A stretch of DNA of 64,000 nucleotides from Candidatus Omnitrophica bacterium CG11_big_fil_rev_8_21_14_0_20_41_12. GTDB lineage: Bacteria > Omnitrophota > Gorgyraeia > Gygaellales > Profunditerraquicolaceae. Within the stretch, counting starts at the first letter, position 1; every line of letters begins with the position of its first letter. The stretch lies in NCBI GenBank assembly GCA_002796135.1, contig PCWB01000027.1:1724-65723 (forward strand). The letters run 5' to 3'. The notes under the pieces are model-generated. The model did no database searches and was not told the DNA's origin. It saw only the letters and a list, made by a program, of their open reading frames with translations. Shown here one piece after another: positions 25,163 to 56,115 of this stretch. The translations under genes were made by a program, and so were the position numbers.

Positions 25163-25164
25163 GT

Positions 25165-25208
25165 ACACCCGGTGCTTAATGGTATTGCGCCGGTGTTCCG
25201 CAGGTGCG
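25165..25208. repeat. Two-hairpin structured repeat, copy A
   Basis: ACACC-C-GGTGC-tta-atgg-tatt-GCGCC-GGTGT-tc-CGC-aggt-GCG, directly after the ftsA stop. Confidence 0.7.
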
Positions 25209-25212
25209 TAAA

Positions 25213-51217: not shown

Positions 51218-51787
51218 TTAAGGTCTTTTAGCCAGCATATCGAACTCTACATTAAGCTTATCCGACGGGCCTTTAAAATTCAACGTAGTATTTTTAAGCG
51301 TATGCGGGATAATACAGACATTAAAAACATTTCCTCTGATTTTGGCTAAGGTCAAACTTATGCCATCCAGCGATATCGACCCCTTAGGCAAACAGTAGCG
51401 CAAAAATTCAGGCGGAACCGCAACTTCTAATTCCACGCTGCCGTTACGCAGTCCTCTCTTACGCACCAGGCCCAGGCAATCAACATGGCCGCTGACAAAA
51501 TGGCCGCTGACCCTGTCCCCGACCTTTAAACTGCGCTCAAGGTTGACTTTTTTACCGATGCTCAGTAATCCTAAATTAGTACTCTTAAATGTAGTATTCA
51601 TAACTTCAAATCTAAGCGAATTACTTCCAAGAGTCACAGCCGTCAGGCATACTCCGTTGACCGAAACACTGTCGCCGAGCTTAGTATCAATTAGAACTTC
51701 CTTGGCACTAATTTCCAAGGAAGTTACTCCTGCCTGATGCGTTATTTTTTTTACCTCTCCCAATTCTTCGACGATTCCGGTAAACAT
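51218..51787 (-). CDS. ribE: Riboflavin synthase (alpha chain)
   Basis: Canonical MFTGIVEE start at 51787, VNGVCLT, VNLER, GHFVSGHVD, IPHT. Confidence 0.95.
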   Translation of the reverse strand: MFTGIVEELGEVKKITHQAGVTSLEISAKEVLIDTKLGDSVSVNGVCLTAVTLGSNSLRFEVMNTTFKSTNLGLLSIGKKVNLERSLKVGDRVSGHFVSGHVDCLGLVRKRGLRNGSVELEVAVPPEFLRYCLPKGSISLDGISLTLAKIRGNVFNVCIIPHTLKNTTLNFKGPSDKLNVEFDMLAKRP

Positions 51788-51788
51788 T

Positions 51789-52883
51789 TTATAGCACCTT
51801 CGCTGCAAATAAGAATTCCTGGCCAAACCGTTTTATTTTCAAATCACTTAATTTTATTGCCTGATCTACGCGTTTAACCCCAATACCCATGACCGAAGAA
51901 ACAGCGTCTTTGCCGCCGATTATCTTCGGACTGACAAAAAATAAAATTCTGTCTACAAGCTTCTCATCAAAAAGCGAGCCGATCAACGTACCGCCGCCTT
52001 CAACGATCATGTTAGTAATTTTCAATTGGGCAATTTTTTTAAGAGCATCGCGTAGATTAATCTGTCCGGATTTTTCTTTCACTTCAAGAATTTTAGCTTT
52101 TGCCGCCAGCCTTTTGCGATTCTCTGTCTCCTGGCCCGGGCGGCTTGGCAAAGTAATAATGATCACCTGAGAGTCATCTGAAAAAATATTGGAATCCTCA
52201 GGAGTACTTAAAGTGCTATCGACAATAAGCTTAATCAGTTTTTTCTTGGTAAACCAAGTGTTCAAGCGCGGATTATCCCGCAGCACAGTATTGACCCCCA
52301 CCATAATCGCATCATAATTCTCACGCAACTTATGCGCATAACTGCGCGATTTATCAGAAGTAATCCACTTTGAATCTCCGGTACGGGTAGCAATTCTGCC
52401 GTCTAATGACTGGCCGACCTTAACTGTAACAAACGGAATCCTGGCAGTAATATATTTTATGAAACTCTCATTAATTTCTTTTAACTGGCTCTCTAAAAAA
52501 CCTACCCTTACTTTAATATTATTCTGCTTAAGCAGCATAACCCCTCTTCCGTTATTCAAGGGGTTCGGATCATACATCCCGACAACCACCTCTTTAATCC
52601 CGCTTTCAATTATACGATTAACACAAGGCGGGGTGCACCCGGTATGCGCACAAGGTTCAAGGGTGACATATAAAGTAGCTCCTTTTGCTTTTTTCTTGGC
52701 TTGATCCAAAGCAAGGATCTCCGCATGGGCTAACCCAGCTTTAGCATGGAAACCTTGACCGATGATTTTGCCTCTCTTAACCACCAAGGCTCCGACCAAA
52801 GGATTAGGATAAGTTTTTCCTTTTGCCTTTAAAGCTAACTTTAAAGCCAGCCCCATATAGTCTGCGTCGGTTTTTTTAATCAT
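51789..52883 (-). CDS. ribD: Riboflavin biosynthesis deaminase/reductase RibD
   Basis: PNPLVG, HAE, TLEPC.H...PPC, SLDG, SKWIT, VEGG. Confidence 0.96.
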   Translation of the reverse strand: MIKKTDADYMGLALKLALKAKGKTYPNPLVGALVVKRGKIIGQGFHAKAGLAHAEILALDQAKKKAKGATLYVTLEPCAHTGCTPPCVNRIIESGIKEVVVGMYDPNPLNNGRGVMLLKQNNIKVRVGFLESQLKEINESFIKYITARIPFVTVKVGQSLDGRIATRTGDSKWITSDKSRSYAHKLRENYDAIMVGVNTVLRDNPRLNTWFTKKKLIKLIVDSTLSTPEDSNIFSDDSQVIIITLPSRPGQETENRKRLAAKAKILEVKEKSGQINLRDALKKIAQLKITNMIVEGGGTLIGSLFDEKLVDRILFFVSPKIIGGKDAVSSVMGIGVKRVDQAIKLSDLKIKRFGQEFLFAAKVL

Positions 52884-53695
52884 TTTTTAGCTTCGCGAAG
52901 TTTTTCTACCAGCTCAAGTGGTATTTTAATCATCCCTAATTTTATATCCGGTTTAGCGTTGCCGTGAAAATCGCTTCCTCCGGTAACCAAAAGATTCAAC
53001 TGCTTAGCTAAATTTAGGTAAAAATTAACCATGGATTGTGAATGTTCAGTGTAATAAATTTCTATCCCGTCTAAACCATACCCGCTGAATTCAGTGATCA
53101 GCTCGTCGTTATGCAAAATATAAGGATGCGCTAGTACTGCCAGGCCGCCGGCATCATGGATCATCTTGATTGCATCCGGGACCGTAAGATAAAAACCTAA
53201 AACATAAGCCGGGGACTTATCTCCGATATATTTACGAAATGCCTCCTGAATAGTTCTTACATTACCTTCTTGAACTAATGCCCTGGCGATATGCATCCTG
53301 CCTACCGTAGATTTTCCGGAGATCTTAAAAACAGCATCGGCATTAAGCTCAACTCCCAACCCTTTTAAATTTTCTATAATTTTATGTACCCGTTCAATGC
53401 GATTGGCCTGTAATAATTTTAATTTCTCTCGCAGCGTAGCATTGCGATAATCCATAAAATATCCCAGGATATGGATCTCCAGCCCTTCATGCTGGGCAGT
53501 CAATTCAATCCCGGGAATTATCTCTAAATCCGTGTCTTTGGCCGCCTCGATTGCTTCCTCAATCGCATCCAGCGTATCATGGTCAACAATGGCAATTGCC
53601 GAAAGATTGCGCTTAAGGCCTTCTTTGACTAATTGCGCAGGGGTATATGTACCGTCGCTGGCCAAAGTATGTACATGTAAATCAGCGAATTTCAT
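52880..53695 (-). CDS. PHP-domain phosphoesterase (TrpH/YciV-like)
   Basis: DLHVHT.ASDG, DHD, GIE, HILGY, GRMH, LAHP, GGSDFHG. Confidence 0.88.
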   Translation of the reverse strand: MKFADLHVHTLASDGTYTPAQLVKEGLKRNLSAIAIVDHDTLDAIEEAIEAAKDTDLEIIPGIELTAQHEGLEIHILGYFMDYRNATLREKLKLLQANRIERVHKIIENLKGLGVELNADAVFKISGKSTVGRMHIARALVQEGNVRTIQEAFRKYIGDKSPAYVLGFYLTVPDAIKMIHDAGGLAVLAHPYILHNDELITEFSGYGLDGIEIYYTEHSQSMVNFYLNLAKQLNLLVTGGSDFHGNAKPDIKLGMIKIPLELVEKLREAKK

Positions 53696-54108
53696 TTTTC
53701 TTTCTCAATTTTTACCTGATCCAAAATAGCATTTACAAACTTCCCAGATTCAATGCCGGAATATTTCTTAGCCAGCTCTACCGCCTCGTTAATTGCCACC
53801 TTAGGCGGAATATCCTGCCGGTACAGCAATTCAAAACATCCCAGGCGCATGATATTGCGATCAACAAAAGCCATGCGTTCAAGTTGCCAGTTAGCCGCAT
53901 ACTTGCTGATCTTTTTATCGATATCCTCCAGATGCCCGACTACTCCGCCAAGTAATTCCGTGGAAAAGTCTTTGGAGTCTGCGGCAGTATCATCCAGCTT
54001 ATTGCTTTGCCAGAAACTTTCGAAAACTTCCTTCCAGTCTCCCCGGGTGATATCTACCTGATAAAGCATCTGCAATACATATTCACGTGCTTTAGTCCGT
54101 TTACGCAT
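53692..54108 (-). CDS. nusB: Transcription antitermination factor NusB
   Basis: RTKARE..LQMLYQ, VDRNIMR, VAINEAVELAKKY, FVNAILD. Confidence 0.96.
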   Translation of the reverse strand: MRKRTKAREYVLQMLYQVDITRGDWKEVFESFWQSNKLDDTAADSKDFSTELLGGVVGHLEDIDKKISKYAANWQLERMAFVDRNIMRLGCFELLYRQDIPPKVAINEAVELAKKYSGIESGKFVNAILDQVKIEKEK

Positions 54109-54112
54109 AGGT

Positions 54113-54580
54113 TTATTTTAATTGTCCGGATAAGCTAACCATCTCAATAGCTGACAAAGCGGCATCTCTACCTTTGTTACCGTCTTTAGAGCCTGCGCGC
54201 TCCACTGCCTGCTCGATACTATCGGCGGTAATTATACCAAAGATGACCGGTATTCCGCTATCTAAAGAAACTTTAGCAACCCCTTTAGCTGCTTCCGAAG
54301 CAATATAATCAAAATGCGGAGTTGCTCCGCGGATAACCGTACCTAAACAAATCAAAGCGTCAAAAGATTTGGTTTTAGCCATCTTCTGAGCAACCAGCGG
54401 AACCTCAAATGCGCCGGGAACCCAGGCTACCGTAATATCCTTATCTTCTGCTCCGTGCCGGACTAAAGTATCAATACAACCACTGACTAACTCTTTAGTC
54501 ATGAAATCATTGAAACGTGAAGCCACCAAACCAAAGGTTTGGCCTTTTGCCAACAGCTTGCCTTCAATTACCTTTGCCAT
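54113..54580 (-). CDS. ribH: 6,7-dimethyl-8-ribityllumazine synthase
   Basis: [24 protein letters not shown]. Confidence 0.97.
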
Positions 54581-54594
54581 CTTTCCTCCTTGTG

Positions 54595-55803
54595 TTAGAG
54601 ATCTAGATAATGCCCTAGTTTCTCTTTTTTTGTTTTTAAATATTTATAATTCTGAGCGCCGGGTTTAATCTCTAACGATATGCGCTCGGCAACCTCTAAG
54701 CCATAACCTTCTAAACCTACGATCTTACGCGGATTATTCGTTAATAACTTTATTTTTTTAACTCCCAAATCAACCAGGATCTGAGCTCCGATGCCGTAAT
54801 CACGCAAATCAGCTTTATGCCCCAAGGCTTCATTGGCCTGAACAGTATCCATTCCCTGATCCTGAAGATTATACGCACGTATCTTTTCAACTAAGCCGAT
54901 ACCCCGGCCCTCCTGATTCATATAAAGGATTATGCCTTTTTTCTCGCCTCCGATGATCTCCATCGCTTTTTCTAATTGATGCCCGCAATCACAGCGTAGC
55001 GAACCAAAGACATCTCCGGTTAAACACTCCGAATGAACGCGCACCAATATTGACTCATCCGACCAGCTGCCCATACACAAAGCAATATGCGTTTGGGCGT
55101 TGGTTTTGTCGCGGTAAATAATTAATTTAAATTCTCCGAATTTTGTAGGTAATATTGTCTGAACCACTACTTCGACTAATTTTTCCCTCCTGCGGCGGTA
55201 TTCGATCAGGCTGGCAATCGAACAAATTTTTAAAGCGTGCTTTTTAGAAAATTCCAGAAGTTGCGGCAGGCGAGCCATTGAACCATCGTCATTCATAATC
55301 TCGCAAATTACTCCCGCCGAATAAAGCCCACAAAGACGCATTAAATCCAGGCTTGCCTCAGTATGCCCGGCGCGCACCAATACTCCACCGAGGCGCGAGC
55401 GTAGAGGAAAAACATGCCCCGGACGAATTAAGTCCTCAGGCTTGGTTTTAAGATTAGTTAAGATTTCAATTGTCTTGGCCCGATCAGCCGCAGAGATCCC
55501 CGTGCTTATCGAGCGCGCCGCATCAACCGAGATCATCCAGGCAGTCTTAAAAGGATCCTCCTTAGTCGCCGCCAGAGTATTTTTAAGCATTGGATCAAGC
55601 TCCAAAAAACGCAACCTCTCCTCTTCCATCGGAACACAGATCAGCCCCCGGCCGAATTTAGCCATAAAGTTTATATCTTCCGGCTTGGCACTTGAGGCAG
55701 CCATGATTAAATCACCTTCATTTTCGCGGTCTTCATCATCAACCACGATAACCATTTTGCCTGCTTTTAAATCTTCTAAAATTTCCGGTATTGAATTAAA
55801 CAT
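54595..55803 (-). CDS. ribBA: Bifunctional DHBP synthase / GTP cyclohydrolase II
   Basis: [33 protein letters not shown]...RCDC, QEGRGIG, TNNP. Confidence 0.97.
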
Positions 55804-55813
55804 AAGCCCCTGT

Positions 55814-55845
55814 AAAAAATAAGCCCAAAAAGATAATCCTCGGGC
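55814..55845 (-). terminator. Intrinsic terminator forming the FMN riboswitch expression platform
   Basis: Minus strand GCCCGAGGA-TTA-TCTTTTTGGGC followed by TTATTTTTT, between the aptamer and the ribBA start. Confidence 0.65.
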
Positions 55846-55891
55846 ATCGTAATTTTAATCTTCTTCCATCTGGACTTTCTCATACGCTTTT

Positions 55892-55936
55892 ACACCCCGC
55901 GTTTATAAGATATTACGCGGGTGTTCGTTCGTACGA
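55892..55936. repeat. Two-hairpin structured repeat, copy B (inside the riboswitch)
   Basis: ACACC-C-CGCGT-tta-taaga-tatt-ACGCG-GGTGT-TCGT-tcgt-ACGA. Confidence 0.72.
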
Positions 55937-55983
55937 ACCATCGGCCCTGGAATCTCACCAGATCTGCCTAGCACATTGTTTAA

Positions 55984-56027
55984 GCACCCAGCGCTAAATT
56001 GCATTGCGCTGGTGCCTGCTCGTGCAG
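55984..56027. repeat. Two-hairpin structured repeat, copy C (inside the riboswitch)
   Basis: GCACC-C-AGCGC-taa-attg-catt-GCGCT-GGTGC-CTGC-tcgt-GCAG. Confidence 0.72.
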
Positions 56028-56087
56028 GGCTCGCGGGCTAAACCGCCGGTAAGGAATTTCACCTTGCCCTAAAGATTAATTGTTAGT

Positions 56088-56115
56088 ATTTTAACAGAAA
56101 ATCTAACCTTGTCAA
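56088..56115 (-). promoter_or_regulatory. sigma70 promoter of the riboswitch/rib operon
   Basis: TTGACA (56115-56110), 16-bp spacer, TAAAAT (56093-56088) with TGn extension, just upstream of the aptamer. Confidence 0.7.

Follow-up and report, generated by a model that had tools for sequence, protein, structure and literature searches.

Riboswitches can carry so-called variable insertions, described by Barrick and Breaker 2007 (PMC2258182) as tolerated, non-conserved stem-loops. The FMN riboswitch analyzed below agrees with that description in having a full aptamer, a rib operon, a terminator platform, and peripheral stem-loops predicted to be harmless to the core; it differs in that its insertions can be traced to a dispersed repeat of ~45 nt, made up of two hairpins (hereafter the unit), for which empty and filled orthologues exist at three loops. 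Repeats inside RNA genes have precedent. Rickettsia palindromic elements (RPEs) sit in tmRNA and RNase P RNA (PMC2229807), and in pneumococcus two T-box riboswitches are separated by a BOX element (PMC3049150). Both share with the unit that they are small repeats located within a structured RNA or next to one, apparently with neutral consequences. However, RPEs measure 105–146 bp and have terminal inverted repeats, whereas the unit measures 45 nt and has none, and the BOX element lies between aptamers rather than inside one.

A second group of described systems is mobile. REP sequences and BIMEs with their TnpA-REP (RAYT) enzymes, and the ends of IS200/IS605 elements (PMC3733652, PMC3333891, PMC8266576), resemble the unit in several ways: each is a short imperfect palindrome located between genes, its bulge is conserved, and it occurs in many copies and in arrays, with no regular target duplication. 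The copy number, intergenic location, imperfect palindrome and conserved bulge of the unit agree with this part of the REP/BIME definition, and its insertion without target duplication agrees with IS200/IS605 behavior. It is unlike REP in three respects: (i) in place of the unpaired GTAG/CGTC foot reported in PMC3733652, its foot consists of a variable arm followed by a paired CAC, (ii) it has an additional, freely varying hairpin at the 5′ foot, and (iii) its copies nest in the same orientation, whereas REPs form inverted doublets, and are placed just upstream of ribosome-binding sites. MITEs of the Correia, RUP or ERIC type have terminal inverted repeats and a fixed-length target-site duplication; the unit has neither, its two ends being different hairpins. 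Fungal mitochondrial double-hairpin elements (Paquin et al. 2000, as cited in PMC5910586) resemble the unit in being mobile and built of two abutting hairpins and, like yeast GC clusters (PMC4478555), merge and shuffle with no known dedicated enzyme. Both are organellar and are likened to the unit by architecture, not by sequence; for GC clusters PMC4478555 also reports short target duplications.

Our literature search, which covered a minority of the subscription journals, returned no description of the unit and no publication joining Omnitrophota with the term repetitive extragenic palindromic; the main text of an Omnitrophota genome preprint (10.64898/2026.06.07.730766) does not contain palindrom-, riboswitch or intergenic. 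The unit is apparently an undescribed, lineage-specific repeat, unusual in its freely covarying hairpin and its sharp preference for abutting ribosome-binding sites, and it falls outside the REP, MITE and IS-end definitions and outside Rfam. We propose that the locus is probably an ordinary FMN switch that has received two copies of a non-autonomous mobile repeat, which moved as single-stranded DNA and is likely neutral at this site.

The FMN riboswitch and its two inserts

The window, that is, the whole 64-kb stretch of DNA analyzed, matches Rfam model RF00050 on the minus strand with 90.4 bits, well above the gathering score of 66.2 bits. The alignment is complete, with model positions 1–138 all covered, and leaves 54 and 63 nt unaligned in two places. 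A first-pass annotation had described a ~220-nt aptamer with intact conserved RFN blocks, enlarged by two ~60-nt inserts that each hold the same two-hairpin element in the same orientation. The full-length match and its two unaligned stretches bear this out, apart from the location of the first insert, which had been placed in P3 and instead sits in P4, the P3 loop being empty (2 nt). P4 here denotes the helix that comes fourth in the Rfam structure annotation, past the P3 strand.

Riboflavin genes downstream and an expression platform with a terminator provide the context expected for RF00050 (Table 1). The nearest relatives of the encoded RibBA, with 72–89% identity, are mostly labeled Candidatus Omnitrophota. 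Transcription from the promoter-like site is predicted to start at the first bases of the aptamer. The 5′ arm of the terminator can alternatively pair with the 5′ strand of the aptamer, forming a predicted antiterminator, and folding of the leader yields either the antiterminator or the terminator (0.98), according to the ends chosen; the inserts take no part in either pairing. We consider the riboswitch to be of ordinary type, predicted to work via transcription termination. As a separate observation, the FMN-controlled rib operon also holds nusB and a PHP-domain gene (52880–54108).

Table 1. Location of the riboswitch, its operon and the unit copies in the window
Feature	Position	Strand	Remarks
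Sigma-70-type promoter-like site	56088..56115	-	11/12 consensus matches, spacer 16 nt; consensus match only
FMN riboswitch aptamer (RFN element)	55854..56080	-	227 nt, every conserved block present; 90.4 bits
Two-hairpin unit, helix P4	55985..56028	-	small hairpin 56015-56028, bulged-G hairpin 55985-56014; 46.8 bits
P4 tail	55966..55984	-	predicted to pair back with unit 5′ arm, closing a long P4 arm; probability 0.96
Two-hairpin unit, P6 loop	55893..55937	-	small hairpin 55924-55937, bulged-G hairpin 55893-55923; 42.1 bits
P6 tail	55877..55892	-	predicted 7-bp pairing with unit 5′ arm; probability 0.93-1.0
Intrinsic terminator	55813..55845	-	stem 9 bp plus U tract
ribBA (DHBP synthase and GTP cyclohydrolase II)	54595..55803	-	first gene under the riboswitch
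Operon remainder: ribH, nusB, PHP-domain gene, ribD, riboflavin synthase	51218..54580	-	
Free unit copy	25164..25212	-	at a gene's end; training sequence of the covariance model
Decayed unit copy (13141-13190) and lone extra small hairpin (13191-13206)	13141..13206	-	25.7 bits; between two co-directional genes

In both inserts the small hairpin of the unit has a 5-bp stem and a 4-nt loop, ACGA. It is directly followed by the second hairpin, which comprises CAC, a 6-bp stem, a loop of 11–12 nt, the other stem arm, a bulged G, and GTG; the P4 and P6 units have identical orientation. The window holds exactly two occurrences of the second-hairpin pattern, and none of 100 shuffles holds any. When 15 copies from other loci than the riboswitch were used to build a covariance model, it recognized the P4 insert (46.8 bits, E 2e-10) and the P6 insert (42.1 bits, E 3.5e-9). 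Non-conserved stem-loop insertions are common in riboswitches (PMC2258182), and the first-pass annotation had named ordinary variable stems, dissimilar under a covariance model, as the outcome that would overturn its claim. We assign next to no probability to the inserts being such stems, alike by chance: the scores of the independent model refute this reading, and the absence of the pattern from the shuffles and the occurrence of 20 perfect bulged-G units, by a structural descriptor, in the real genome, against none in each of three shuffled genomes, argue against it as well.

The assembly was checked against contigs from other runs, both runs that may have been its source being set aside. 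Run X5 has a contig that reproduces the P4 insert with 0 differences, run X3 has contigs for each insert (0–1 differences), and run X12 has one that spans the P6 insert but shows a variant in the loop. Both inserts are skipped in the contig of a relative in run X13.

A dispersed two-hairpin repeat

With the covariance model the unit was found 39 times in the 1.22-Mb genome, 33 times at E ≤ 0.0015. It occurs in at least 6 of 8 genomes of the same family and in at least 13 of 151 genomes of the phylum, all of those listed belonging to the same class, with up to 40 copies in one genome; the phylum scan scored 40 candidates per genome, and its counts are lower bounds. Besides the two inserts, the model recognizes two window copies, at 25164 and 13141, which are probably those that the first-pass annotation had called A and D. 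No Rfam family matched the unit in the window at E ≤ 5, at 20 genome loci at E ≤ 1, or at 20 further loci at gathering. Viral contigs held 0 exact matches to the unit pattern, phages had no match, and the sole matches in plasmids were 32-nt stretches of the conserved FMN core.

The stems are Watson-Crick paired with few exceptions and covary strongly. All 6 of 6 base pairs of the small hairpin show changes on both sides, 96.7% of the cells being paired, and the covariation score of the whole structure was reached by 0 of 500 shuffles. Across loci we collected 210 large hairpins; 178 are accompanied by a small hairpin, and these have 72 different 5′ arms. Stem mismatches among the copies comprise 16 G-T, 15 A-C and 8 others, the count for the second hairpin being constrained by the exact search pattern at 120 metagenome loci. 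Wobble pairs are thus scarce and strand-symmetric, which suggests that selection has acted at the level of DNA and less likely on a single RNA strand, and that the unit is a DNA-level hairpin.

At orthologous junctions the unit is present in some genus genomes and absent from others, namely upstream of rpsF in 9 of 30, at gapA-pgk in 9 of 30, at tig-clpP in 6 of 30, and at rpsF-ssb in 2 of 29. Whole units are also nested within the loop of another unit, mostly after AATT (24 cases), or arrayed in tandem (9 cases). Based on these observations, we consider the unit likely to be a mobile repeat, in keeping with the first option of the first-pass annotation, a mobile mini-element that survives in tolerant loops. 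Whole units have gone in cleanly at two kinds of site, namely the loop of the unit itself and the spacer that separates a stop codon from a ribosome-binding site. Long flanking duplications accompany 4 of 106 free copies, with some direct repeats of 10–23 nt. A fixed-length target-site duplication is ruled out by these two observations.

Free copies are sharply positioned. At 77 sites both flanking genes run opposite to the unit and at 4 both run with it, and in 83 of 146 copies an anti-SD-like 4-mer ends within 2 nt of the unit start. The flanking genes are unrelated and mostly housekeeping, with no shared function. Although 27 of 37 copies oppose the main gene direction of their contig, the two informative cases go with the local gene, so that a replication-strand bias, as set by the lagging-strand template in IS200/IS605-type elements, is not shown. 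The genome itself has the great majority of its coding length running one way on nearly every contig, and the minority genes have an opposite third-position G/C skew on most contigs.

Random survival would hardly produce so sharp a placement at ribosome-binding sites, and some copies probably affect translation. In the shortest empty gapA-pgk orthologues the spacer has no separate ribosome-binding site. Some of the gapA-pgk copies may supply, and partly hide, such a site: in L443, L447, L452, L465, L337 and L357 the arm of the small hairpin is GGAGGA or similar and lies 7–10 nt 5′ of the pgk start. A different arrangement occurs in L451, L460 and L448 (G045, G011 and G016), where an apparent ribosome-binding site is separated from the pgk start by the whole unit, which stands 1 nt before the ATG, the contig end cutting L448; initiation of pgk would here need the hairpins to be looped out, or translational coupling. 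At the tig-clpP junction L140 (G000:C40:25780-25880), the unit has on its upstream side a sequence like the tig stop region of one relative and on its downstream side one like that of a second relative, as if the end of tig had been rebuilt or duplicated at insertion.

FMN riboswitches across the genus and folding of the inserts

The comparison with orthologous riboswitches that the first-pass annotation had proposed does reveal empty loops. Among 43 FMN riboswitches of the genus (classified by loop-length thresholds, with G001 and G044 set aside), 31 have a longer P3, P4 or P6 loop, and in the other 12 every loop is short; P3 is long in 18, P6 in 16, and P4 in one, which is the window's own. 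Most long loops, not all, carry the unit or else a second subtype whose stem differs, doubled or nested in some cases, and in every long loop inspected the small hairpin lies on the 5′ side. On a RibBA tree of 54 rows, drawn without five outgroup rows and without the short proteins of G002 and G004, the filled states are patchy. G015 is filled and its sister G057 empty, the nearest well-supported clade of the window genome includes G051, all of whose FMN loops are empty, two outgroup loci (L050, L054) have filled P4, and some P6 loops retain the small hairpin alone. Repeated gain and repeated loss of the inserts both fit this distribution.

Tolerance of the loop is not the whole explanation. 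The unit was found inside RNase P RNA in 0 of 43 genus loci (of 45, two being set aside) and inside tmRNA in 0 of 30 loci; in the RNase P scan one locus matched a different repeat and another gave a single reverse-strand match to the descriptor. Since other hairpin repeats do occupy RNase P loops in the genus, insertion into any tolerant loop is too simple a rule. One of these repeats, a small palindrome unlike the unit, is found in the RNase P loops of several genus members and also in the normally conserved P2 loop of the FMN riboswitches L037:380-415 (G020) and L034:420-455 (G023). A third kind of hairpin repeat occupies three separate loops of the 513-nt RNase P RNA in L567 (G018).

Folded in isolation with DNA parameters, the unit in each insert is predicted to form its two hairpins. 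When the RNA leader is folded and its core helices are enforced, the pairing probability of the small hairpin is ≤0.02 in the inserts; the 5′ arm of the unit pairs instead with the downstream tail (0.93–1.0), giving a single long arm per insert. The P6 arm pairs with its own tail at −9.2 kcal/mol, compared to −4.5 and −4.0 kcal/mol with the tails of two near relatives, and in 10 of 13 P4/P6 fills pairing with the own tail is better than with shuffled tails (p ≤ 0.05). This co-variation of arm and tail in several fills points to selection on the RNA fold rather than pure drift.

In the P4/P6 fills the arm of the unit matches the host stem, and the empty P4 of G051 starts with the same five bases as the unit arm. 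The arm in P6 and P4 may either have been host sequence from the outset or be a host helix that selection rebuilt after insertion. Removal of the whole unit still leaves a short possible P4 in the window riboswitch. We predict that each insert becomes a long helix directed away from the ligand core in the riboswitch RNA, and that P1, terminator and antiterminator stay intact; the inserts are probably near-neutral for regulation and likely retained since they are harmless. In many genus members (for example L011/G021, L439/G020, L437/G013) the usual short P4 resembles the stem of the large hairpin, and the P4 helix itself may derive from an old copy of the unit.

We also evaluated whether the unit could be a domesticated RNA module, used for protein binding, mRNA protection or tuning of translation, the FMN copies of which would give the riboswitch a second input. 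The antisense bias in operons (77 versus 4) and the positions abutting ribosome-binding sites are compatible with such a role, as are the gapA-pgk copies that give the sole obvious GGAGGA before the start codon and the recurrence in FMN loops as against none inside RNase P RNA or tmRNA. However, the copies in the riboswitch read opposite to those abutting the SD in mRNAs and differ from them as RNA sequences; the mRNAs carry the reverse complement of the riboswitch copy, which lends no support to a shared RNA-binding input. Loss of the small hairpin from the predicted riboswitch RNA is an argument against a protein-binding module, and G-U pairs are not enriched on either strand. Orthologues free of inserts are common, the occupied loop varies, and the flanking genes have no common function. 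We regard the module as quite improbable, and the protein-binding second input that the first-pass annotation had offered as its other option has no support, in view of close relatives without inserts, the varying filled loop and the small hairpin at ≤0.02.

The lineage shows one source of the variable insertions of riboswitches and offers natural empty/filled pairs at three loops of one aptamer, in which tolerance or gain of function is directly testable.

Candidate movers and mode of movement

A cognate Y1 gene flanked by the repeat, as known for REP/BIME, was searched for at 51 of the 123 Y1-transposase matches in the genus; at none of them did the unit flank the gene, save for one partial match of 17.6 bits. 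Neither was the unit found at the genome's two IS110 loci, its one reverse-transcriptase locus or its three integrase loci. No transposase family occurred among 159 flanking proteins scanned, and 33 unknown flanking proteins, compared with one another, gave no recurring family. The GxxExxY nuclease and four-helix-bundle families were not found in the genome (95.8% complete), and the three genome matches to GIY-YIG do not lie close to listed unit copies.

The lack of a linked mover in the loci examined would agree with the same neutral repeat having no dedicated enzyme, its units being made, perfected, duplicated and deleted by host replication slippage, hairpin template switching and recombination or gene conversion among copies and among related strains. 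Tandem units often start within the small hairpin, a few copies have 10–23-nt direct repeats, the P6 loops holding the small hairpin alone fit deletion between repeated arms, and the tails look like an inverted copy of the small hairpin. On the other hand, clean whole units occur without homology at unrelated sites (the P3 loop, stop-to-SD spacers, the unit's own loop), the position of 83 of 146 free copies is sharp, and the invariant bulged G and the CAC/GTG foot resemble a protein recognition mark. An enzyme-free origin appears unlikely on this evidence, if worth keeping in sight.

Spread by an RNA intermediate with a reverse transcriptase acting in trans is very improbable in our estimate. 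The genome encodes one reverse transcriptase, orientation tracks transcription and a few copies do have long flanking direct repeats, all as this route would have it, but the unit was not found at the reverse-transcriptase locus, most copies have no flanking duplication, and G-U pairs are scarce in the stems.

REP and IS200/IS605 enzymes give rise to clean insertion, an invariant bulge, arrays and capture of flanks (PMC8266576, PMC3333891, PMC6006769), and REP processing on single-stranded DNA is bulge-dependent and guide-directed (PMC8266576, PMC3333891). As the unit shows the same features, we favor processing of single-stranded DNA in trans. According to the mechanism we propose, the unit would be recognized as folded single-stranded DNA and moved by an enzyme encoded elsewhere, the invariant bulged base probably serving as the recognition mark of the mover, and mobility would be REP/IS200-like, with HUH-type cleavage and rejoining and no regular target duplication. 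Such an enzyme, acting on single-stranded DNA, may be new.

In a more specific version, which we rate as doubtful, the 3′ arm of the small hairpin is a re-programmable guide, or is templated by the target, so that the unit would be a target-adapting element moved by an undescribed single-strand DNA enzyme of the Omnitrophota. In IS200/IS605-type elements a guide at the 5′ foot of the hairpin pairs with the cleavage or target site; a test of the unit arm against downstream sequence gave a weak signal, z=2.5 and p=0.01, as one of eight tests and with related copies. If true, a guide would explain the 72 paired arm variants, the arms that match host stems in P4, in P6 and in the unit's own stem, and the arms that double as ribosome-binding sites, and would make the unit a working source of both riboswitch variable insertions and new ribosome-binding sites.

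Two RAYT-like Y1 genes of the window genome, at L041 and L042 (G000:C24 and C18), each have their own flanking inverted repeats, which are not the unit; repeats similar to these flanks occupy the gapA-pgk and rpsF-ssb spacers in relatives.
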